Source of the DNA: an uncultured Candidatus Saccharibacteria bacterium
GTDB taxonomy: Bacteria; Patescibacteriota; Minisyncoccia; Phycocordibacterales; DATDWN01
Assembly (NCBI GenBank): GCA_964452635.1
Contig: CAYVMP010000006.1
Location: 1 to 37,599, forward strand
Direction: 5' to 3'
Length of the DNA stretch: 37,599 nt
Below are positions 1,285-28,575 of the stretch, piece by piece. The position numbers and the translations under genes were made by a program. The notes under the pieces were generated by a model. The model saw only the letters and a program-made list of their open reading frames with translations, had not been told where the DNA came from and ran no database searches. Every line of letters begins with the position of its first letter. Within the stretch, counting starts at the first letter, position 1.

Positions 1285-3105
1285 ATGGAAACATTTTTCC
1301 AGACATTGTTGGGTTATTGGTGGGTTCTAGCCATCGTGTTAGTTCTCGCCTGTTACAAACTTGTTTTCCGACTGTTCGGCGCGGTTATCATTCCGCAGGA
1401 CAGTATCGGCATCGTCAACAAGAAGTTCGTTCTGTTCGGCAAGAATCGCACGCTTCCCGACGGGTGCATCATCGCACTCAACGGCGAGGCTGGTATTCAA
1501 GCCGACACGTTGGCGCCCGGGATTCATTTCGGGTTCTGGCCTTGGCAGTACGAGGTTAGGATCGAAGGATTCACTCAGATTGAGGAGGGGATGATCGGTG
1601 TTGTTGAATCTGCCGATGGCAGATCTCTCAGTGCGGGACGTGTCCTTGCAGAACGAGTAGATTGCGACTCCTTTCAGGATGCTCGCAAGTTCCTCACGGG
1701 TGGTGGTGAACGTGGACCGCAAATCACGGTGATTCCTCCAGGAACTTACCGTGTTAACATAGGTCTGTTCACGGTCGTTCAAGAGGAGGCTCTCGAGATC
1801 GAAGATAACATGGTCGGTGTTGTCACGACGCGTGAAGGCAAAGCTCTTCCGACTGGCGACATTGCGGGCGGGGAAATCCGAGGACATAAAATGTTCCAGG
1901 ATGCTCAAGCTTTCATCGATAACGGTGGATTCAAGGGTCTGCAGGAACAGGTCATGCTGGCTGGTAGATACTTCATCAATCCGCGGTTCGCAACGGTGGA
2001 AACCAAACCAATGACCGAGGTCCCGATTGCCAATGCTGGCGTCGTCATCGCTTTCGTTGGTGATGCTGGCGTCGATGTGACAGGAGAGTCATTCAAACAC
2101 GGCAACTTGGTGAAGAGGGGTCAAAAGGGTGTCTGGGTCGAGCCTCTCGATCCGGGCAAGTACCCAATCAACCCTTACACTCACAAGGTGGAATGCGTGC
2201 CAACGGCAAACGTTGTTCTCAACTGGGCAACAGGTAAAACCGAGTCTCACATGCTCGACAAAAACCTGTCCACCATCACTGTTCGTTCGTCCGACGGCTT
2301 CACGTTCAATCTCGACGTTAGTCAGATCATTCACATTCCACGCACCGATGCTCCCAAAGTCATCGCTCGCTTCGGCAGTGTGGCCAATCTGGTCACTCAG
2401 GTTCTCGAACCGACAATCGGAAACTACTTCCGCAACGCTGCGCAAGGGTCCGATGTTATCGAGTTCTTGAAGCAACGGCAACAACGCCAGAATGATGCCA
2501 AAGAGCAGATCTCTGAGGCACTCGAAGATTACAATGTCGGTGCGGTGGACACCCTCATCGGTGACATTACTCCGCCAGCATCGCTCATGACAACTCTCAC
2601 CAACCGAAAGTTGGCTGAGCAGGAGAAGATTACGTACGATACGCAACGTCTGGCCGAGGATACCCGTAAGGAGCTTCAGCAAGCGAAAGCGCTAGCAGAT
2701 ACGCAGGCGCGAGTGGTAGACGCGGAACGGAGTGTTCAAATCGCCGAGTTCAATGCGAAAGCCACAGTCAAGAAGGCTGAGGGTGACGCACTTTCGAAGA
2801 CAATTAACGCCAAAGCTGATGCTGAGGTTCTCACGACCGTTGGCTCGGCTGAAGGTACGAAGATCACGGCAGTCGGTGAGGCAGAGGCGAAGGTTATCCA
2901 GTTAAAGACCAACGCGGTTGGTCCGGGTAACTATGCGATGATTGAAGTCGGCAGAGCACTGGCTGGCAGCGGCTTCAAGTTAGTGCCGGACGTGATCGCC
3001 GGTGGAGGGACTGACGGTGGAAGTTCTGGGATCATCAACGTACTTATGGCAGGAATACTAAAGGACTCGTTGAACGGTCATCGTCAGGAAGTTCCGAAGC
3101 AATAA
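1285..3105 (+). CDS. Flotillin-like SPFH/band-7 membrane protein (YqiK/FloA type). The gene is GC-rich (~58-60%) with C/G-ending codons, unlike the rest of the window
   Basis: The protein has an N-terminal TM segment, an SPFH domain and a C-terminal Ala/Glu-rich coiled coil (AEGDALSKTINAKADAEV...GEAEAKV). An RBS (AAAGGAGGG) sits 5 nt upstream. Codon usage is dominated by ATC, AAC, TTC, GTC, GGC and GAC. Confidence 0.75.
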   Translation: METFFQTLLGYWWVLAIVLVLACYKLVFRLFGAVIIPQDSIGIVNKKFVLFGKNRTLPDGCIIALNGEAGIQADTLAPGIHFGFWPWQYEVRIEGFTQIEEGMIGVVESADGRSLSAGRVLAERVDCDSFQDARKFLTGGGERGPQITVIPPGTYRVNIGLFTVVQEEALEIEDNMVGVVTTREGKALPTGDIAGGEIRGHKMFQDAQAFIDNGGFKGLQEQVMLAGRYFINPRFATVETKPMTEVPIANAGVVIAFVGDAGVDVTGESFKHGNLVKRGQKGVWVEPLDPGKYPINPYTHKVECVPTANVVLNWATGKTESHMLDKNLSTITVRSSDGFTFNLDVSQIIHIPRTDAPKVIARFGSVANLVTQVLEPTIGNYFRNAAQGSDVIEFLKQRQQRQNDAKEQISEALEDYNVGAVDTLIGDITPPASLMTTLTNRKLAEQEKITYDTQRLAEDTRKELQQAKALADTQARVVDAERSVQIAEFNAKATVKKAEGDALSKTINAKADAEVLTTVGSAEGTKITAVGEAEAKVIQLKTNAVGPGNYAMIEVGRALAGSGFKLVPDVIAGGGTDGGSSGIINVLMAGILKDSLNGHRQEVPKQ

Positions 3106-4035: not shown

Positions 4036-6177
4036 ATGTCTAAAGAATCTGAAAAAAAAGTGAAAAAGGACACGCCCACCAACGCTAAAGCTAAGGTGGA
4101 CACGTACGGAGCGGATGCAATCCAGATTTTGGAGGGTCTTGAACCCGTACGAAAGCGTCCTGGAATGTACATTGGTACGACTGGTCCAGACGGTCTTCAT
4201 CACCTTATTTGGGAAATTTTCGATAACTCACGTGACGAAGCCATGGGTGGTCATGCAAATGACATTGAGGTTACACTTTTGCCCAACAACCGTATCCGTG
4301 TTACGGACAATGGTCGTGGTATTCCAGTAGATATTCATAAACAGACCAAGGTGTCTGCGCTTGAAACCATTATGACAACACTCCACGCAGGAGGAAAGTT
4401 TGGTGGTGAAGACGGTGGCTACAAAGTGTCTGGAGGTCTGCACGGCGTGGGAGCATCGGTAGTTAACGCACTCTCTATTTATTGTAAAGTAACTGTTCAT
4501 AAGGACGGAGGTGTGTACATGCAGGAGTACTCTCAAGGCAAGAAAAAAGCACTTGTAAAGAAGATTGGAAGTACTAAAGAACAGGGAACGATTGTTCTCT
4601 TTGAACCTGATACAGCAATCTTTCAATCAGTTGAGTTTGATTTTGACCGAGTGGTCAACCATTTGCGCCAGCAGGCGTATCTCGTGAAGGGCTTGCGGAT
4701 TACAGTCAACGATGCACGTGAATATGCAGGAAAAATAAAAGAGGACGATACATTTAAAATATCTGAGCTTGGGTTGGAAATCCCATCAATGTCATTCTAT
4801 TTCGAAGGAGGTTTACTCTCTCTCGTCAAATTCTACAATAGTACTCAAAAACCGATTCATAAAAATATTTTCTATATTGAGAAAAATACAAACGAGTATG
4901 AGTCTGTTGAGGTATCCCTTCAGTACGTTGACGATATCTCATGTCGAATACTTCCATTTGCAAACAATATTTATAACCCCGAAGGAGGTACGCATGTAAC
5001 GGGATTTAAAACCGCACTGACACGTATTTTGAATGCGTACGCTCGTAAAAATAATTTGATAAAAGAAAGTGAAGATAACTTCACTGGTGACGATGTTCTC
5101 GAGGGTTTGACCGCAGTAATCTCCGTGAAGCTACGAGAGATTCAGTTCGAAGGTCAGACTAAAGCAAAACTCGGTACTGTCGAGGCACAGAGTTCAGTCA
5201 ACACAGTATTCTCTGAAGGATTCACATACTTCCTCGAGGAGAACCCAGATGATGCTCGATCAATCATTTCTAAAGTAGTTCTCGCACTCAAAGCTCGAAA
5301 GGCTGCAAAGGCTGCAAAGGATTCCGTGCTCCGTAAGGGTGTGCTTGAAGGTATGACACTCCCTGGTAAACTTGCCGACTGTCAGTCAAAGAGTTCTGAG
5401 GATTCTGAGCTCTTCATTGTGGAGGGAGATTCTGCAGGTGGTACTGCAAAGACTGGTCGTGATCGACGCACACAGGCGATACTTCCACTTCGAGGAAAGA
5501 TTCTTAACATTGAACGTGCACGTCTCGACCGAATGCTTGAGTCAGAACAGATCAAAAATCTCGTGCTTGCACTTGGAACTGCTATTGGTGATACGTTTGA
5601 TATTGCAAAACTTCGATATCACAAAGTGATTATTGCTACCGATGCAGACGTGGACGGTGCGCATATTCGAACATTGATTCTCACACTTTTTTATAGATTT
5701 TTCCGACCGCTTATTGATGGGGGATTCATATATATTGCTCAACCACCACTCTATAAAATAAAGAAAGGCAAGGAGGTCCACTACGCATATTCAGATGAGG
5801 AGAAGGCGGGTATTGTCGGAAAAGCTGAAGTCGCTGAGATTGGAGAAATCAGCGAGGAAGACCTTGCCCTGCGTAGCTCAAGTGAAGCGCAGAGCGAAGC
5901 AGGGGAAGATGCTGACACTCCTGCTTCGCCAAAGGCTTCGCAGGATAAAGCTAAAGCTTTGAAGATCTCTATTCAACGATACAAAGGTCTCGGAGAGATG
6001 AATGCTGAGGAACTCTGGGAGACAACGATGGACCCTGCTCGTCGAATACTCAAACAAGTTACTGTTGAGGATGGTGTGTCTGCTGACAAGGTATTCGATA
6101 TTCTCATGGGAAGTGACGTTCCATCTCGAAAGTCGTTCATTCAATCAAACGCAACTAAGGCAAATCTTGATATATAA
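4036..6177 (+). CDS. gyrB: DNA gyrase subunit B, with a ~35-40 aa low-complexity insertion in the C-terminal linker that contains a repeated palindromic element
   Basis: The ATPase (GHKL), transducer and Toprim domains are recognisable, including EGDSAGG, PLRGKILN and IQRYKGLGEMN motifs. The linker between YAYSDEE and IQRYKGLGEM is ~60 aa, versus ~20 aa in typical GyrB. Confidence 0.95.
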   Translation: MSKESEKKVKKDTPTNAKAKVDTYGADAIQILEGLEPVRKRPGMYIGTTGPDGLHHLIWEIFDNSRDEAMGGHANDIEVTLLPNNRIRVTDNGRGIPVDIHKQTKVSALETIMTTLHAGGKFGGEDGGYKVSGGLHGVGASVVNALSIYCKVTVHKDGGVYMQEYSQGKKKALVKKIGSTKEQGTIVLFEPDTAIFQSVEFDFDRVVNHLRQQAYLVKGLRITVNDAREYAGKIKEDDTFKISELGLEIPSMSFYFEGGLLSLVKFYNSTQKPIHKNIFYIEKNTNEYESVEVSLQYVDDISCRILPFANNIYNPEGGTHVTGFKTALTRILNAYARKNNLIKESEDNFTGDDVLEGLTAVISVKLREIQFEGQTKAKLGTVEAQSSVNTVFSEGFTYFLEENPDDARSIISKVVLALKARKAAKAAKDSVLRKGVLEGMTLPGKLADCQSKSSEDSELFIVEGDSAGGTAKTGRDRRTQAILPLRGKILNIERARLDRMLESEQIKNLVLALGTAIGDTFDIAKLRYHKVIIATDADVDGAHIRTLILTLFYRFFRPLIDGGFIYIAQPPLYKIKKGKEVHYAYSDEEKAGIVGKAEVAEIGEISEEDLALRSSSEAQSEAGEDADTPASPKASQDKAKALKISIQRYKGLGEMNAEELWETTMDPARRILKQVTVEDGVSADKVFDILMGSDVPSRKSFIQSNATKANLDI
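5865..5904. repeat. 40-nt palindrome-ended element, tgccctgcgtagctcaagtgaagcgcagagcgaagcaggg, inserted in-frame in gyrB and encoding ALRSSSEAQSEAG. An identical copy sits at 17574-17613 in smc. Further GCGAAGC/GCTTCGC palindromes follow in gyrB up to ~5942
   Basis: The 40 nt are identical at both loci. The ends are inverted repeats (ccctgc / gcaggg), and the 10-bp inverted repeat gcgaagcagg / cctgcttcgc lies at 5893-5926. Confidence 0.8.
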
Positions 6178-11517: not shown

Positions 11518-11710
11518 TTTTAAAAAATAATTTCTTTCTCACCACTTCATTTTGAGAGACCCCGTCTCGGCGTGCTCGCCGATCGGTTGCCTCGAAAATC
11601 TAAGAAAACAATGTCCTCGACCGTGTACCATTCACGGTCTCGTCCTTGTTTTCTAAATTTTATGCGAAGTCTCTCAAAATGAAGTGATTCAACGAAATTA
11701 TTTTTTAAAA
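11518..11710. repeat. Structured intergenic element, copy A (~190 nt). Arms of ~35 bp form an imperfect inverted repeat (11526-11560 versus 11669-11702) enclosing a ~105-nt core with two local hairpins. Related to the copy at 24755-24925 and to a miniature copy at 1115-1170
   Basis: The left arm, aataatttctttctcaccacttcattttgagagac, pairs with the right arm, gtctctcaaaatgaagtgattcaacgaaattatt, with an internal 8x7 loop. The core hairpins are cggcg-tgct-cgccg and ccgtg-taccatt-cacgg. Confidence 0.6.
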
Positions 11711-11761
11711 CTATCATATTGTACCATGTCATCCAAAGTTGTGGTGAGGGGGGTGTTTTAT

Positions 11762-11794
11762 AAAAAAAAGAAACCCGGTGCTAGACAGGTTTCT
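11762..11794 (-). terminator. Intrinsic terminator after the RHH gene on the − strand (gaaacc ... ggtttc + T8)
   Basis: The reverse complement shows a hairpin followed by TTTTTTTT. Confidence 0.6.
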
Positions 11795-11810: not shown

Positions 11811-12056
11811 TTAGACAGGGATATCTTCAAAGATATCTATTTCTTCGTATCGCCCATCTTTTTTGATTGCGAACTCATGTCCTTGCCGATGCAGTTCCCA
11901 GAGCAAAATGAGTATCTGGCACCCATTTCGCACCGATGCTCCTAGACTCGGAGCATCCATTTCTTTTTTGATTGATTCCAAATCGGCAAAAAGTTTAGTC
12001 GGAAAATCAATCGTTAGTCTCTTGTTTGCCTTTTTTGTTTCGAGTTTAATAATCAT
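11811..12056 (-). CDS. Small ribbon-helix-helix (CopG/Arc-like) DNA-binding protein
   Basis: The N-terminal KRLTIDFPTKLFADLESIKKE matches the RHH beta-strand/helix pattern, and its own terminator lies downstream. Confidence 0.5.
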   Translation of the reverse strand: MIIKLETKKANKRLTIDFPTKLFADLESIKKEMDAPSLGASVRNGCQILILLWELHRQGHEFAIKKDGRYEEIDIFEDIPV

Positions 12057-14742: not shown

Positions 14743-15060
14743 TTGCAAAATAAAAGCTCCCTGTCTTGGTTCAGGGAGCACGGTCACACGTTTATCCAGG
14801 ATGAGGGGTTCAAATCCCCCGAGCACCCAATTTCAAAGGAGAATTGCGGGCCCACAATTTCTCCTGTCACCCCACCCAAAAGATGGTTTTGGATTTTTCC
14901 CTTTAAGAGACCGATCGTGATGATCAGTCCAGAAGCTTTAGTAGTGTTCTGCCAAAACACTACTTCTTCGACCCAAGTGTCTTGTTTGGATAGGCTAGAG
15001 CATGACTCTAAAACCTAACTTCATTCAAGGGAATCACCGCCCGAAGGCTTTTTGTTTTAT
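14743..15060 (+). ncRNA. Structured ~300-nt noncoding region ending in an intrinsic terminator (15037-15060). It contains a tRNA/tmRNA-like T-arm plus acceptor 3' strand (GAGGGGTTCAAATCCCCCGAGCACCCA, 14803-14830). Its identity is unresolved; the 91-aa ORF called here is probably spurious
   Basis: A canonical T-loop, TTCAAAT, lies between 5-bp G/C stems. Several local hairpins are visible (14756-14780, 14838-14864, 14941-14962). No complementary 5' acceptor strand was found. Confidence 0.35.
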
Positions 15061-15142: not shown

Positions 15143-15478
15143 ATGGGAGCTTTTAGAAATTTTCCTGAAGAAGAAATTCCAGATTTTTTCCCCGATATTA
15201 ATTGGCAACATTGCCAAGGTAAAGGGGATATAGTAGAAGCCTCTCAACCATCTGAAGAGCTTCAGGATGTTCCTGAGCGAAATGAATTGTCGTTAATGGA
15301 TGATATCAGTCGCATTGCTCGCTTTAGAAGTATAGCGAGGGAATGCGAAAGAATATTTTCGTCACTTCTGAGAAATGGAGTTGATGAAAGGTATTTATCG
15401 AGTGCGGAGGATACACTTCGTACACTCGAAGATGAGCTGAATAGATGTCAACAGGAGATTGAAGAGGGTGCGCCATAG
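15143..15478 (+). CDS. Hypothetical acidic protein (111 aa)
   Basis: A strong RBS (TAGGAGGTG) is present, and a terminator hairpin overlaps the stop codon. Confidence 0.55.
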   Translation: MGAFRNFPEEEIPDFFPDINWQHCQGKGDIVEASQPSEELQDVPERNELSLMDDISRIARFRSIARECERIFSSLLRNGVDERYLSSAEDTLRTLEDELNRCQQEIEEGAP

Positions 15479-15496: not shown

Positions 15497-15543
15497 TGTT
15501 CCCAAAATGTATAATGAAGTTTGTTAAAAATAAATTTGTTGAA

Positions 15544-15636
15544 CCAATATGTTTTTGGCATATGCCGCAACGCGTGAAGACGTGAGGTTAAGGAAAAATC
15601 GTAGCAACGATTTATTCCGGTGCCAAAAACATATTG
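15544..15636 (+). promoter_or_regulatory. Perfect 17-bp inverted repeat, ccaatatgtttttggca / tgccaaaaacatattgg, enclosing 58 nt in the smc leader
   Basis: Read directly from the sequence. It ends 34 nt upstream of the smc ATG. Confidence 0.5.
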
Positions 15637-15669
15637 GTGAGAAAAAATTTATTTTACACACTGAAAACT

Positions 15670-17961
15670 ATGTATCTCAAATCAATCGAACTTTCTGGAT
15701 TCAAATCATTCGCAAAGAAAAGCGAGTTGCTTTTCAACTCGTCAATTTCTGCTATCGTTGGACCAAACGGATCGGGAAAGTCGAACATTGCGGAGGCATT
15801 CCGGTTTGTACTCGGTGAACAGTCCATCAAATCACTCCGTGGGAAAAAGGGTGAGGACCTCATATTCAACGGTGCAGGGGATTTGCCACGATCAAACCGT
15901 GCATCAGTGAAAGTCGTGTTCGACAATAGTAGTAAATTTCTACCAGTTGATTTTCAAGAGGTGACTATCGAGCGAGTCGTCCATCGAGACTCAGTCAATG
16001 AATACCTCATAAATGGCTCACAGGTTCGTCTCAAGGATGTGATTGAACTTCTCGCTGCTGCACACATCGGAGCATCTGGACACCATATCATTTCGCAGGG
16101 AGAGGCTGATCGTATTTTAAATGCAAGTGTCAAAGAACGTAAATCAATGATTGAAGATGCTCTCGGTCTCAAGATGTATCAATATAAAAAACAAGAAAGC
16201 GAACGTAAACTCGAAAAGACCCGAGAAAATATTGTACAGGTAGAATCCCTCCGGCGAGAGATTCTTCCGCATATTAAATTTCTCAAGAAACAGGTTGAGA
16301 AAGTCGAGAAGGGAATTGAGCTGAAAGGTGAATTACGAGAACGTGCGATTGAGTATTGTAATCGTGAACAGGAATACATCACACGAACTACAGCCCACTT
16401 ACATGAGACGCGTTTACCACTTGAGTCGACACTTCGTGCGCTCGAAGAAGAGTTGCAGGAAGCTAAATCGATTCTTAATGCCCGCGAACACAAGGATCAA
16501 AAATCCGAAGACCTCATTCAACTTGAAAAAAGTTTACATGCAATTCGAGATGAGAAAGACAACCTCTATCGTGAGTTTGGACGCATCGATGGTGAAATGA
16601 CATCGCTCGTGCGTATGGTAAAAAAACAGGAGGAGGTTGCGCAATCATACGAACATAAAACTGTACCACTTGTATCTGTCGAATCATTGTCACAAAATAT
16701 TGAGTCAAAAGTCCACACAGTACGGGGGTGTGTGACGGATGGCGACATCACTCTTGCTCTACAGACGTGTGACGAGATTGTACGACTTGTTACTGAATTT
16801 GTTGATGACAATAAAGATAAAGTGGATATGTCACTCCTCTCTGATGCTCAAAGAGATATTGAACATTTGAAACAGTCCAAAAATGATATTGAAAGCAGAC
16901 TTCAAGATATAAAGCAAAAGGAAATACGCGTGAGTGAACAGTATACTGTGCTCAAGGAAAACATTGAAAGGGAAAAAGATTCTAATCGTGATGCAGAAAA
17001 GGCAGTATTTCGTATTATGGCAGAACAGCAGGAAGTACGATCAAAACTGCACTCCCTCGAGAGTGATGAGAATCTTTTGAAAGTAGTCTCTGAAGATTTC
17101 AAGCGAGAAATCACAGAACTTGCGGTACTACTTGGGCGTGATGTATTGCAGTTTTCGGCGTATACGTTTGACTATACCGAACCTCGTACTGCTCAGGAAG
17201 AGAGGAGAAGAATGGTTGAGAAAATCAAGATTCGTTTGGAAGAAATGGGTGCGTCGGGTAGTGATGATGTGCTAAAGGAATACACAGAGGCTACTGAGCG
17301 AGACACGTTTCTCACGAAGGAGCTTTCTGATTTGGAGGCCTCAGCCTTGTCACTGACTGGACTCATTGCGGATTTGGATACGAGACTTTCAACAGAGTTT
17401 AAAACAGGAGTAGAGAAAATCAATCGACAATTTAAGGAATACTTTGCTCTCATGTTTGGTGGAGGGGAGGCGTCTCTTTCGGTTATTGTGGAACAAAAAC
17501 GCAGGAAAAGTGATACTGGTGCAGATGATTTGTTTGGGGGTGATTCTCATGATTTGTTAGACGATGGAGGGCATGCCCTGCGTAGCTCAAGTGAAGCGCA
17601 GAGCGAAGCAGGGATTGATATCGAGGTGAGTCTTCCAAAGAAAAAGGTGAAGGGACTCATGATGCTCTCAGGTGGTGAGAGGGCACTGACATCCATCGCA
17701 CTCCTCTTTGCTATTTCTCAGGTTAATCCTCCACCGTTTATTATTCTCGATGAGACTGACGCAGCACTCGATGAAGCCAATTCAAAGAAATATGCGGACA
17801 TGATTGAAAACTTATCAAAATACTCTCAACTCATTGTGATTACACACAATAGAGAGACCATGTCCCGCGCAGGAATCCTCTACGGAGTAACGATGGGTAT
17901 GGGTGGGGGATCGAAGTTGCTGTCCGTTGCCTTTGACGAAGCTGTTTCGGTTGCAAAATAG
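15670..17961 (+). CDS. smc: SMC-family chromosome segregation ATPase, short form (~764 aa). An in-frame insertion before the LSGGE signature carries the same 40-nt element found in gyrB
   Basis: Walker A GPNGSGKSN, a long coiled coil, the LSGGERALTSIALLFAI signature and the Walker B motif ILDETDAALD are all present. The start is chosen at MYLKSIELSGFKSF. Confidence 0.85.
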   Translation: MYLKSIELSGFKSFAKKSELLFNSSISAIVGPNGSGKSNIAEAFRFVLGEQSIKSLRGKKGEDLIFNGAGDLPRSNRASVKVVFDNSSKFLPVDFQEVTIERVVHRDSVNEYLINGSQVRLKDVIELLAAAHIGASGHHIISQGEADRILNASVKERKSMIEDALGLKMYQYKKQESERKLEKTRENIVQVESLRREILPHIKFLKKQVEKVEKGIELKGELRERAIEYCNREQEYITRTTAHLHETRLPLESTLRALEEELQEAKSILNAREHKDQKSEDLIQLEKSLHAIRDEKDNLYREFGRIDGEMTSLVRMVKKQEEVAQSYEHKTVPLVSVESLSQNIESKVHTVRGCVTDGDITLALQTCDEIVRLVTEFVDDNKDKVDMSLLSDAQRDIEHLKQSKNDIESRLQDIKQKEIRVSEQYTVLKENIEREKDSNRDAEKAVFRIMAEQQEVRSKLHSLESDENLLKVVSEDFKREITELAVLLGRDVLQFSAYTFDYTEPRTAQEERRRMVEKIKIRLEEMGASGSDDVLKEYTEATERDTFLTKELSDLEASALSLTGLIADLDTRLSTEFKTGVEKINRQFKEYFALMFGGGEASLSVIVEQKRRKSDTGADDLFGGDSHDLLDDGGHALRSSSEAQSEAGIDIEVSLPKKKVKGLMMLSGGERALTSIALLFAISQVNPPPFIILDETDAALDEANSKKYADMIENLSKYSQLIVITHNRETMSRAGILYGVTMGMGGGSKLLSVAFDEAVSVAK
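17574..17613. repeat. Second copy of the 40-nt palindrome-ended in-frame element (identical to 5865-5904). A perfect 10-bp palindrome, gggcatgccc, is created at its 5' junction
   Basis: Exact 40/40 identity with the gyrB copy, translated in the same frame (ALRSSSEAQSEAG). Confidence 0.8.
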
Positions 17962-18014
17962 CTCCTTGATTATTTTGTAAAAAAGTGTAGAAATATGTGT
18001 GGAGGTAAGCGAAA

Positions 18015-18638
18015 ATGTCCAATAAGTTTCTGGGGGTGCCTAAACCCTTTAAACTCCCACTGTTGGAGGAAAGATTGTGTGAACATAAAATCCCTACATT
18101 ATGGGATGATTCGATGTCTATCGGGTTATATATGGTGTACGCCACTGACGATGATGGACAAGAGAATTTGGAGGAGTTTTGTAAAAAACATCCTTCTAAA
18201 AAATACTTGGTTAGCATGAGTGAATTTGTGCTGACCTGTATTCAAGGAGTTCTGTTTGTGCTTTTTTTGGTAATACCCGCGTCTACAATAGGGAAACCCA
18301 GTATTCCTCAGAATGTCGCTTTGTCCATTATCGAGATGATTATATTAGCTGTGTTCATTTTCTCCCCTAGTTACATAAAGAAGTTGCAGTATACTTTGCG
18401 TGGGAGAGGATGGTCGGAATCTAACCCAGCACTGTTTGCCCATGAGCATCCAATGGATGTTATCAAGCAAATCTGCGGGTGTTCTACAGATGACTGTACT
18501 CACTCACCATTTAATTTCTTGGTGTCGCACCACCCAAGAAATCCTACTCGATTCCTGTCTGTTAAGGGACCAGATACTGGTCCTGCGAGAGTGTACTTCC
18601 TCGCTTCGTGGGAAAAACCATCAGAAAAATCAGAGTAG
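18015..18638 (+). CDS. Small membrane protein, paralog 1 (207 aa), with two predicted TM helices and a Cys/His-rich C-terminal region (ICGC...C.H...HHPRNPTRFLSV...YFLASWEKPSEKSE)
   Basis: RBS GGAGGT; promoter TTGATT-N16-TAGAAA; its own terminator at 18648-18676. Confidence 0.7.
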   Translation: MSNKFLGVPKPFKLPLLEERLCEHKIPTLWDDSMSIGLYMVYATDDDGQENLEEFCKKHPSKKYLVSMSEFVLTCIQGVLFVLFLVIPASTIGKPSIPQNVALSIIEMIILAVFIFSPSYIKKLQYTLRGRGWSESNPALFAHEHPMDVIKQICGCSTDDCTHSPFNFLVSHHPRNPTRFLSVKGPDTGPARVYFLASWEKPSEKSE

Positions 18639-18647
18639 AGTAGATAT

Positions 18648-18676
18648 CCTCCGGTACACGCCGGGGGATTTGTTTT
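18648..18676 (+). terminator. Intrinsic terminator of paralog 1 (cctccgg tacacg ccggggg + ATTTGTTTT)
   Basis: Stem-loop plus T-run; an identical copy lies at 19415-19446. Confidence 0.6.
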
Positions 18677-18766
18677 ATATCAATCCGTAGCGAGAATTTC
18701 ATCAAAAATCTTTCTACCTTGATTATTTTGTAAAAAAGTGTAGAAATATGGGTGGAGGTACGTGAA

Positions 18767-19405
18767 ATGTCAGATAAGTTTACGGGTACGTTTAAGCCCT
18801 TCGAGTACCCAGCGTTGGAGTTGGAACACCGTCTCCATAGTCGTAGCGTAGTGGTATCTGAAGAGCCATCTCAAGTGGTTCTGTATATGGTGTACGGTAA
18901 GGATTATGATGCACTTGCAAACCGAGAGGAGTTTTGTGAAAAACATCCTTTCCAGAAGTATTTTGTTGGAATGAGTGAGTTCGCGTATGCTTCCTTTATC
19001 CTTCTTGTTGGCTTATTGTTTCTGTTTACAACTGTCATAGCCTTTACTGGAGAACGAGGATTCACTACCCAGAACATACTAAAAAGCATTTTTATGATAG
19101 TTGTGATTTATCTCTGTATTTTTTCCCCCAGATACATAGAAAGACTAAACCATTCTTTGGAGGGTAGGGAATGGACGACTTCCCCTCCATCACATTTTAC
19201 CAATGAGAATTCGATGGATAGCATGAAAATAATCTGTGGTTGTCTCGATGCGGTTTCAAAATGTGCTCACCCAGGGTTTATTTTTAAGGTGTGGCACCAC
19301 CCACGCAATCCTACTCGGTTTCTGTCGGTTGAAAGTGTTCGTTCTGAAGGCAGAAGAAGATATTTCCTCGCCTCGTGGGAAAAACCATCAGAAAAATCAG
19401 AGTAG
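18767..19405 (+). CDS. Small membrane protein, paralog 2 (212 aa) of the same family. The start is the ATG after GGAGGT, not the upstream GTG
   Basis: It shares the N-terminal MS.KF.G..KPF, LYMVY, EEFC.KHP, FSP.YI, ICGC and HHPRNPTRFLSV...YFLASWEKPSEKSE motifs with paralog 1. Confidence 0.7.
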   Translation: MSDKFTGTFKPFEYPALELEHRLHSRSVVVSEEPSQVVLYMVYGKDYDALANREEFCEKHPFQKYFVGMSEFAYASFILLVGLLFLFTTVIAFTGERGFTTQNILKSIFMIVVIYLCIFSPRYIERLNHSLEGREWTTSPPSHFTNENSMDSMKIICGCLDAVSKCAHPGFIFKVWHHPRNPTRFLSVESVRSEGRRRYFLASWEKPSEKSE

Positions 19406-19414
19406 AGTAGATAT

Positions 19415-19446
19415 CCTCCGGTACACGCCGGGGGATTTGTTTTTTT
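19415..19446 (+). terminator. Intrinsic terminator of paralog 2, convergent with the rnr 3' end
   Basis: Identical hairpin plus T-run. Confidence 0.6.
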
Positions 19447-21860: not shown

Positions 21861-22051
21861 AGTTTTCAAAATTCGTCGAGTGCACTTACTGTTCTGGCAC
21901 ATTGCGCAGTCAATTAGAAAACAACTGTGGGCGAGTGATGGGAACACGAGATCCGCATCTTGTTTTCTTGATTGGCGAGCGTGAGGAAAATTTCTAGCAA
22001 GAAATTATTCCGGTGACAGAACAGTAAGTGTCGAGACAAATTTTGAAAACT
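21861..22051 (+). promoter_or_regulatory. Long-range inverted repeat in the uvrA 5' leader. The arms agttttcaaaatt...cacttactgttctg (21861-21896) and cagaacagtaagtg...aattttgaaaact (22017-22051) enclose ~120 nt and end 12 nt before the uvrA ATG
   Basis: The 13-bp and 14-bp perfectly complementary segments are separated by a 9-nt mismatch loop in each arm. Confidence 0.5.
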
Positions 22052-24754: not shown

Positions 24755-24925
24755 AAAAAATTACAGTAATTTCTTTCTCACCATCTATTTTCTCCAGACC
24801 GCGTCCTCGCCCGGGAGCGAGTCGCTTGCCTCGTCATTCATAAGAAAATGTAAAGTGGAATACCACTAACATTTTCTAAAATGACTGCGAAGTCTTGCAA
24901 AAATAGATGGTTCGACGAAATTATA
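24755..24925. repeat. Structured intergenic element, copy B. The left arm is taatttctttctcaccatctattttctccagac (24767-24799) and the right arm is gtcttgcaaaaatagatggttcgacgaaatta (24892-24923). It has the same architecture as copy A, and the conserved motifs are shared
   Basis: It shares AATTTCTTTCTCACCA, TTGCCTCG, TTTTCTAAA and TTCRACGAAATTA with copy A. The stem positions differ from copy A but remain complementary within copy B. Confidence 0.6.
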
Positions 24926-24943
24926 AAATTACTTGAGTTTGTA

Positions 24944-24997: not shown

Positions 24998-25264
24998 TTA
25001 AGCAAGTAGTTCTAAAAATTTGTTAACATCAGATATTTTTTGAAATAAAAGTTTTGGTGATGATGGGATATCTGTTCTGTCAATAGTATCCAACCATTTG
25101 TTTAATAGTATTACTGCTTCCGGATGAATTTCTTGGGTTGATCTCTGTGCGCCATCTGTCCGGCTATGGTGATTTTTGGACATATAGATTTTTTCTCCAT
25201 CCCAAGCATTCAAGACTGCGCCAGTGTACGCAGCCATTTCCTCAACCTTTTCTTTGTGTGTCAT
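24998..25264 (-). CDS. Hypothetical protein (88 aa)
   Basis: A good RBS (GGAAGGAG) lies 8 nt upstream of the ATG, and a terminator follows downstream. Confidence 0.5.
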   Translation of the reverse strand: MTHKEKVEEMAAYTGAVLNAWDGEKIYMSKNHHSRTDGAQRSTQEIHPEAVILLNKWLDTIDRTDIPSSPKLLFQKISDVNKFLELLA

Positions 25265-28309: not shown

Positions 28310-28575
28310 TTTCTAAAATCCTCCACCACAGTGGAATTTTCAGAGACCCCGGAGGTAATTAGGAAACAACGACGAACGAGAAGAAGCGCGAAGCACTGTT
28401 TGACGAAGTCGTACTCGACGAGGAGTTTGCGAAAGCGCTCTGGAGTGAGGACGATTGTTTCCTTGATTACCGAGGAAGAGCAATTCGTGACCACACGAAT
28501 ATGCGTGCTCTGAAAATAACACTGTGATGGAGGATCTGTAATACGGTTTTGTAGTGTGTGTTAATATATCAAATA

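Follow-up and report, generated by a model that had tools for sequence, protein, structure and literature searches.

Introduction

Bacterial MITEs, for example the Correia elements of Neisseria, ERIC/IRU and RUP/BOX, resemble the repeats described here in their size, their terminal inverted repeats, their intergenic position near genes, their co-transcription, the long RNA hairpins that they form and their presence/absence differences between relatives. Integron attC sites are recognised as a folded single strand, in which conserved unpaired or extrahelical features are combined with variable stems and a variable terminal structure; their consensus reads GTTRRRY / RYYYAAC. The strand of a functional RNA is generally expected to tolerate G·U pairs in its helices, but not A·C. 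Patescibacteria (Candidate Phyla Radiation) possess genomes that are among the smallest and most tightly packed of all bacteria. Mobile REPIN elements commonly carry compensatory changes across their hairpin (Bertels and Rainey, 2011; PMC3116915).

Here, we report on a family of structured intergenic repeats that was analysed starting from one stretch of DNA of 37,599 nt, in the following called the window. A sequence-only reading had described two full copies of an element of approximately 190 nt with long inverted-repeat arms. The compensatory changes between the arms of the two copies were taken to indicate either a structured RNA family, possibly a 6S-like RNA, or a structure-dependent DNA element, and to exclude a MITE.

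Host and gene content of the window

The window is of the Patescibacteria, Parcubacteria / 'Minisyncoccia' type, and its UvrA and DnaE show 79-88% identity to proteins labelled Parcubacteria, Paceibacterota, Zambryskibacteria or Minisyncoccia in the sources. It carries pheT, gyrB, thrS, dnaE, rnhB, a nusB-NUDIX fusion, rnc, smc, an RNase R gene, uvrA, uvrC and mreB.

Several further features were recorded (Table 1). Three small ORFs are located in the expanded spacers alongside copies A and C of the repeat; they are missing from the compact syntenic spacers of the relatives and gave no informative family match. None of the small window-specific ORFs matched a protein family, and for two of them only borderline matches to unannotated PHROG families were obtained. 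A pair of tandem paralogous genes with near-identical flanks (94% upstream, 98% downstream) separates smc from the RNase R gene; in the relative L056, only 2 nt lie between the two. Searches of Pfam and NCBIfam returned no match for these paralogues, and there was one borderline match to an unannotated PHROG family. An identical 40-nt segment with palindromic ends, TGCCCTGCGTAGCTCAAGTGAAGCGCAGAGCGAAGCAGGG, is present in the unrelated genes gyrB and smc, where it codes both times for ALRSSSEAQSEAG inside a variable acidic linker. The peptide is missing in the relatives L056 and L058; a small in-frame insertion or a gene-conversion tract could explain the segment. A 30-nt palindrome, TTATTTGTCAAAAATTTTATTGACAAATAA, is located upstream of the SPFH/Band-7 gene and looks like an operator. 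Finally, the uvrA-uvrC interval contains a small ORF on the opposite strand that is also found at the equivalent position in L045, L048 and L053; its product appeared hydrophobic by eye in two translated cases, and in the window and L045 the ORF is accompanied by a terminator-like hairpin of its own.

Repeat copies within the window

Altogether, the window harbours five copies of the repeat in 37.6 kb (A to E, Table 1). The two copies described before, A and B, are real and share one common architecture; the span of copy B was adjusted from 24755-24925 to about 24764-24927, and the motifs AATTTCTTTCTCACCA and TTCRACGAAATTA, which had been reported as conserved between the two, are exact in each. 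Copies C, D and E had been overlooked and were first located by a repeat scan and a motif search of the window. When a covariance model was trained without C or E, it recovered copy C with 64.9 bits (E = 7e-14) and copy E with 22 bits (E = 0.005), while copy D matched weakly (12.4 bits, E = 1.3). The end motifs of copy D are divergent, with GTCTCGA opposite CACTCGAC and an outer stem of GTTTTCAAAATT / AATTTTGAAAAC. Copy E has degenerate ends and kept the junction and P4 motifs of the family (TCCTCGGTAATCAAGGAAACAATCG). In contrast, a proposed truncated 'mini' copy at 1115-1170 had to be given up: it folds no better than shuffled sequences (z = +0.46 and -0.69) and gave no model match at E <= 10.

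Table 1. Positions of the repeat copies and of neighbouring features in the window.
Feature	Position	Strand	Remarks
Copy A	11518..11710	+	family 'forward' strand on +; covariance model 96.4 bits
Copy A, outer stem	11518-11534 pairs with 11694-11710
Copy A, internal loop	11535-11540 opposite 11689-11693		TTTCTC opposite TCAAC
Copy A, long variable stem	11541-11560 pairs with 11669-11688
Copy A, core	P3 at about 11561-11586		three-way junction: small hairpin P3, GCCTCG, long hairpin P4, TGCGAAG
Copy B	24764..24927	+	between uvrA stop (24693) and terminator of convergent small gene; 99.6 bits
Copy C	15525..15656	-	short 'type 3' core; end 13 nt upstream of smc ATG (15670)
Copy D	21862..22050	-	end 12 nt upstream of uvrA ATG (22063); based on motif and stem matching
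Copy E	about 28310..28545	-	arms 28318-28345 and 28508-28535; between aminoacyl-tRNA synthetase gene and mreB
dnaE start region, ACCATGTCATCCAAA	11496..11510	-	exact inverted repeat at 11723-11737, on the far side of copy A
Inverted duplicate of dnaE start region	11723..11737	+	exact over 15 nt
Intrinsic-terminator-like hairpin	11769..11794	-	of upstream minus-strand ORF; border of the spacer with copy A
Small ORF	11811-12056	-	expanded spacer
Small ORF	14743-15018	+	expanded spacer
Small ORF	15143-15478	+	expanded spacer
Tandem paralogous genes	18015-18638 and 18752-19405		region 17964-19443
40-nt segment in gyrB	5865-5904
40-nt segment in smc	17574-17613
30-nt palindrome	about 1170-1205
SPFH/Band-7 gene	1285-3105
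Small ORF between uvrA and uvrC	24998-25264	-

Copy A is indeed placed between the dnaE ATG (11507) and the minus-strand terminator, but it fills most of this spacer and not the whole region. The dnaE start region is duplicated in inverted orientation around copy A, and the repeat becomes 18 nt long if one mismatch is allowed; a flank repeat of comparable length was found at none of the other copies. In the dnaE-sense RNA, a 15-bp helix is predicted to close over the whole of copy A and thereby to bury the AUG (-113 kcal/mol, z = -13.9). On the + strand, the duplicate makes a 25-codon ORF that begins with MSSK, like DnaE. The duplicate may be a by-product of palindrome extension via template switching, which would also account for the variation of the outer stems from copy to copy with their complementarity maintained. 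A translational gate is an equally possible reading of the duplicate.

Fold, conserved motifs and covariation

Members of the family are 120-210 bp long and are read here in a 'forward' orientation, which corresponds to the + strand for copies A and B. The outer stem consists of AAATTTC/GAAATTT or covarying variants, usually prolonged outward by another 3-11 complementary bases, which vary in sequence from copy to copy. It is followed by an asymmetric internal loop, TT[T/A]CTC opposite TCRAC, which had been described as 8x7. We define it as 6x5 (TTTCTC opposite TCRAC), because the neighbouring position covaries as A-T, C-G or G-C. A variable stem of roughly 19 bp, closing with AGAC/GTCT, leads to a three-way junction with the motifs (G/T)CCTCG and CTGCGRAG. 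The small hairpin P3 has a conserved TGNT loop, and its stem is perfectly compensated even among otherwise near-identical copies (GTT/AAC, CTC/GAG, CCT/AGG). The longer hairpin P4 exists in at least three interchangeable types. In divergent subfamilies, the outer stem reads AAACTC/GAGTTT or AATCTC/GAGATT, and TTACTC occurs as a variant of the loop. Thus defined, the family is characterised by its fold and a few unpaired motifs, while the arm sequences are not diagnostic. By-eye inspection revealed no fit to K-turn, loop E or hammerhead motifs.

The fold is much more stable than expected from shuffled sequences, with z = -12.3 and -12.8 for the two strands of copy A and z = -7.6 and -7.9 for those of copy B (0/200 shuffles as good in each case), and it is equally stable under DNA energy parameters. 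The claim of compensatory change between copies was confirmed far above chance. For the end stems of 15 copies, both sides were changed in 18 of 25 pairs, a value reached by 0/500 shuffles, and among 23 model-aligned copies this applied to 38 of 41 pairs. In the latter set, 92.0% of the cells are paired compared to 67.1% in shuffles and only about 55% in slid controls, although the pairing is somewhat inflated here by the fitting of the alignment to the covariance model. The corresponding covariation score amounted to 0.578, versus 0.156 for shuffles and no more than 0.12 for slid controls. RNAalifold, applied independently to a MAFFT alignment, returned the same helices, and every helix shows covariation. 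However, the further step from covariation to 'not a MITE' does not hold: in mobile REPINs, compensatory changes across the hairpin have been reported to be frequent (PMC3116915), hence covariation does not exclude mobile DNA, and the present family behaves as mobile DNA.

No Rfam family was matched anywhere in the window at the gathering threshold, and around copy A only chance matches to miRNA hairpins appeared at E <= 10. These negative results also speak against known self-cleaving ribozymes and riboswitches.

Copies in other genomes

At least 23 further copies were gathered from related Patescibacteria MAGs, and the whole catalogue comprises about 28 copies. The covariance model, built from eight trimmed type-1 copies, found divergent subfamilies, some of them in genomes that had been scored empty by sequence profiles; the nhmmer end profiles had missed the subfamilies ending in AAACTC/GAGTTT and AATCTC/GAGATT. 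A pattern scan of GTDB genomes revealed true members only in the MAG JBAQUS01 ('Minisyncoccia bacterium') and in CAZNUU01, the remaining matches being without stems, and four more distinct copies came from a metagenome scan. In JBAQUS01, 13 copies are present in the 40 kb of sequence examined, and some of them are about 95% identical at unrelated loci. A phage, viral or plasmid origin was rejected: collections of phages, viruses and plasmids gave no BLAST match to the family, and the single viral pattern match sits inside an ORF and has no stem. The copies were found in the Parcubacteria / 'Minisyncoccia' group of the Patescibacteria. A description of the family was found neither in Rfam 15 nor in the full-text literature searched; apparently, it is undescribed so far.

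Site occupancy in syntenic relatives

Three syntenic relatives with a DnaE identity of 79-81% kept the gene order RNase R - smc - rnc - nusB - L32 - rnhB - dnaE - thrS - gyrB. The rnhB-dnaE gap comprises 617 nt in the window compared to 61, 161 and 14 nt in these relatives, and the rnc-smc gap 939 nt compared to 62 and 87 nt. Gaps of this size cannot hold a copy, therefore the A and C sites are empty there. In the relative L056, a copy is found between nusB and rnc, which are 30 nt apart in the window, and L048 and L050 have one upstream of xseA, where the gaps in L053 and L062 are 3 nt or less. The site 3' of uvrA contains copy B in the window; in L045 its place is taken by a variant with the loops GATGA/GATTTA, and in L048, L050 and L053 there is no copy at this site. 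It must be mentioned that all genomes from which presence and absence were deduced are diverged by about 20% in their proteins, and that excision or insertion was not directly observed. The different intergenic sites in each genome, the occurrence in either orientation and the unrelated neighbouring genes show that the family has spread or been lost at the DNA level.

Occupancy at the same site was also seen upstream of corA, where L027 (5622-5790) and L062 (21135-21317) each have a copy; their CorA proteins are 67% identical. The two copies share the orientation and differ in core type and stem sequences, and either an insertion hot spot or long-term retention may be responsible. Long-term retention could apply to both the corA-upstream and the 3'-uvrA site, each being occupied in two diverged genomes. 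Copy E and the copy L028p had been considered as a pair of orthologous insertions, which was rejected because the flanking synthetases are unrelated.

Gene neighbours, orientation and strand signal

Across the copies, the flanking genes are functionally unrelated; apart from dnaE, smc and uvrA, they include, among others, the genes for RNase J, CorA, FtsA, an MFS transporter, a GH130 enzyme and ribosomal protein L25. The idea of a regulon or riboswitch, in which dnaE, smc and uvrA would be connected by the shared repeat, was therefore rejected, as was also indicated by relatives without the repeat at the same genes.

The orientation of the copies relative to transcription is random. Between co-directional genes the split is 8 to 6-7, with the remaining copies in divergent or convergent spacers; an orientation bias suggested by an early tally of about 11 to 3 was gone at 28 copies. 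The distance from the end of a copy to a start codon is 10-40 nt, or that from a stop codon to the beginning of a copy 3-70 nt, and so close to genes the copies must be co-transcribed. A consistent promoter or terminator for the copies was not found. The end bearing the TTTCTC side of the loop has a median distance of 20 nt to the nearest gene boundary (a start in 14 cases, a stop in 12), compared to 67 nt for the other end, and this modest asymmetry toward genes may reflect an insertion preference.

We also searched for a signature of the strand on which the fold is formed. Among 899 cells of the consensus helices, 26 are G·T and 32 are A·C; the two kinds of mismatch are thus similarly common and provide no RNA-strand signature. 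In 15 of 16 copies, the fold is more stable on the complementary strand. This asymmetry was discarded as evidence, since shuffles of the better strand also gain 7-8 kcal/mol, which makes the difference mostly one of base composition, and since the stem mismatches are symmetric. The difference that is left concerns positions only: U-A, Y-G and tandem G·A pairs become possible in the conserved loop when the complementary strand is read, and the P4 loops then turn into G·U pairs.

Search for a mobilising enzyme

A target-site duplication was found neither at the boundaries of the near-identical copies nor at those of the other copies. In about 0.6 Mb searched, there was no transposase or recombinase adjoining the copies, no protein common to their neighbourhoods and no parental autonomous element with matching ends. 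One Y1_Tnp / RayT-like HUH protein is encoded in JBAQUS01 (L060, contig JBAQUS010000017.1, 18507-19220, minus strand), inserted between gyrB and pheS. It matches PF01797 with 25.1 bits (cut-off 23) and contains the motifs NHFHIL and YIHLNPV. Its gene is flanked by the inverted hairpins CCCCTAC-N7-GTAGGGG, which are unique in the sequence examined and unrelated to our family; as a candidate mobiliser, the gene showed no link to the repeats.

Discussion

In our view, the repeat is probably a REPIN/MITE-like, structure-dependent mobile DNA, i.e. a non-autonomous foldback element that is passively co-transcribed. We favour mobile DNA because the locations differ between genomes, copying has been recent, the neighbours are unrelated and a strand signature is missing. 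Hence, from the two options left by the sequence-only reading, the structure-dependent DNA element is preferred, with the empty syntenic sites, the near-identical dispersed copies, the random orientation and the symmetric mismatches in its favour. We infer the mobilising enzyme and the mechanism as follows. A folded single strand or a cruciform with the conserved loops would be read by an enzyme acting in trans, much as RAYT transposases use REP/REPIN hairpins and integron integrases use attC hairpins. In this case, selection for the ability to be mobilised would maintain the complementarity of the arms. A further contribution may come from strand-symmetric templated repair or from template switching between the arms, as hinted by the inverted duplication of the dnaE flank around copy A. 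Copies close to start or stop codons may incidentally affect the processing or translation of the mRNA. However, some observations stand against mobile DNA. The outermost stem bases are variable, while a classical transposase is expected to need conserved termini; conserved unpaired nucleotides at the junction and in the hairpin loops are typical of functional RNAs; and target-site duplications and an adjoining transposase or recombinase are missing, while two sites are each occupied in two genomes.

The most serious rival is a cis-acting structured RNA module in 5' or 3' UTRs, possibly mobile itself or exapted from a mobile element, for example a processing site for RNase III or another nuclease, an mRNA stabiliser or a translation-control element. 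We regard this as possible, though rather unlikely. All helices covary and the unpaired nucleotides of loops and junction are conserved, but the stems accept G·T and A·C to a similar extent. The closeness of the copies to starts and stops means that they are transcribed; nevertheless, their orientation relative to transcription is random. The additional loop pairs, the P4 G·U pairs and the lower folding energy of the complementary strand would fit an RNA, yet the energy asymmetry is mostly compositional. Likewise, the predicted helix burying the dnaE AUG at copy A, the presence of an RNase III gene in the window and the shared occupancy upstream of corA are consistent with a function in cis, whereas the same UTRs do without the repeat in close relatives and the neighbouring genes have no common function.

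A more speculative proposal, to which we assign a low probability, is that the repeats are substrates of an unrecognised structure-reading mobilisation system of Patescibacteria, or a mobile RNA module that was co-opted for gating translation or processing. In the first case, the enzyme would recognise the folded single strand via the 6x5 loop and the junction nucleotides, so that all stems including the hypervariable small hairpin would be free to change. This would be the third example of 'structure, not sequence' after attC-integrase and REP-RAYT. The second case is suggested by the buried dnaE start codon at copy A.

It is very improbable that the repeats are attC-like folded-strand recombination sites, whose structure and unpaired bases would be read by a site-specific recombinase. 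The repeats do share the complementary variable stems, the conservation of asymmetric unpaired loops and the variability of the apical structure, and GTTGAAY on the complementary strand fits the GTTRRRY consensus in some copies. However, the GTYGA motif is unpaired and has no RYYYAAC partner, copies with TCGAC break the consensus, and neither an integrase nor cassette arrays were seen; the flanking genes are housekeeping genes in conserved synteny. The assignment to 6S-like RNAs, or to another family of stand-alone regulatory small RNA genes, is effectively refuted: although the length of about 190 nt and the rod-like outline with internal loops would fit, the repeats match neither 6S nor other Rfam families, five copies occur in 37.6 kb, promoters or terminators are not consistent, close relatives lack a copy at the A and C sites, and the orientation is random.

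The family makes up much of the spacer difference between the window (600-900 nt) and its relatives (14-90 nt), with copies lying right next to the starts of dnaE, smc, uvrA and mreB. Covariation of textbook quality does not indicate a functional RNA here, which calls for caution in pipelines for ncRNA discovery. If the mobilising enzyme were found, it would represent a new system for the structure-specific recognition of DNA (or RNA) from a poorly studied phylum.

Comparison with known systems

Compared to 6S RNA (Rfam RF00013 and related), the family is similar in its length, its high degree of structure and its closing stem. It differs by being multicopy, by the three-way junction in place of the central bubble of 6S RNA, and by loci that are not conserved. 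With attC sites it has in common the conserved unpaired features, the variable stems and the variable terminal structure. It differs from them in lacking a paired R-box, an integrase and cassette arrays, the copies being scattered among syntenic housekeeping genes.

More features are shared with MITEs, namely dispersed copies whose presence differs among related genomes and terminal inverted repeats, the outermost bases of which are, however, not conserved. MITEs are defined by the sequence of their terminal inverted repeats, our family by structure and loops, and it lacks a TA or any other target-site duplication. Since neither such a duplication nor a cognate transposase was found, the family is not a 'plain' MITE.

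Regarding REPIN/REP elements, the differences concern mainly the ends. Short paired REP palindromes bearing a conserved GTAG-type motif are absent; in our family, the two ends form the opposite sides of one long stem, which includes an internal loop, and neither end contains a short palindrome. Its conserved features are the asymmetric 6x5 loop and the motifs of the three-way junction, whereas the stems are variable up to the termini. In addition, the host belongs to the Patescibacteria, and no associated RAYT was identified. In other respects the likeness is broad (Bertels and Rainey, 2011; PMC3116915): both are without target-site duplications and without a transposase inside, both form lineage-specific populations with many copies per genome, and both consist of extragenic repeats, about 100-200 nt long and able to form hairpins, in which conserved end regions enclose a less conserved middle and compensatory hairpin changes are common.
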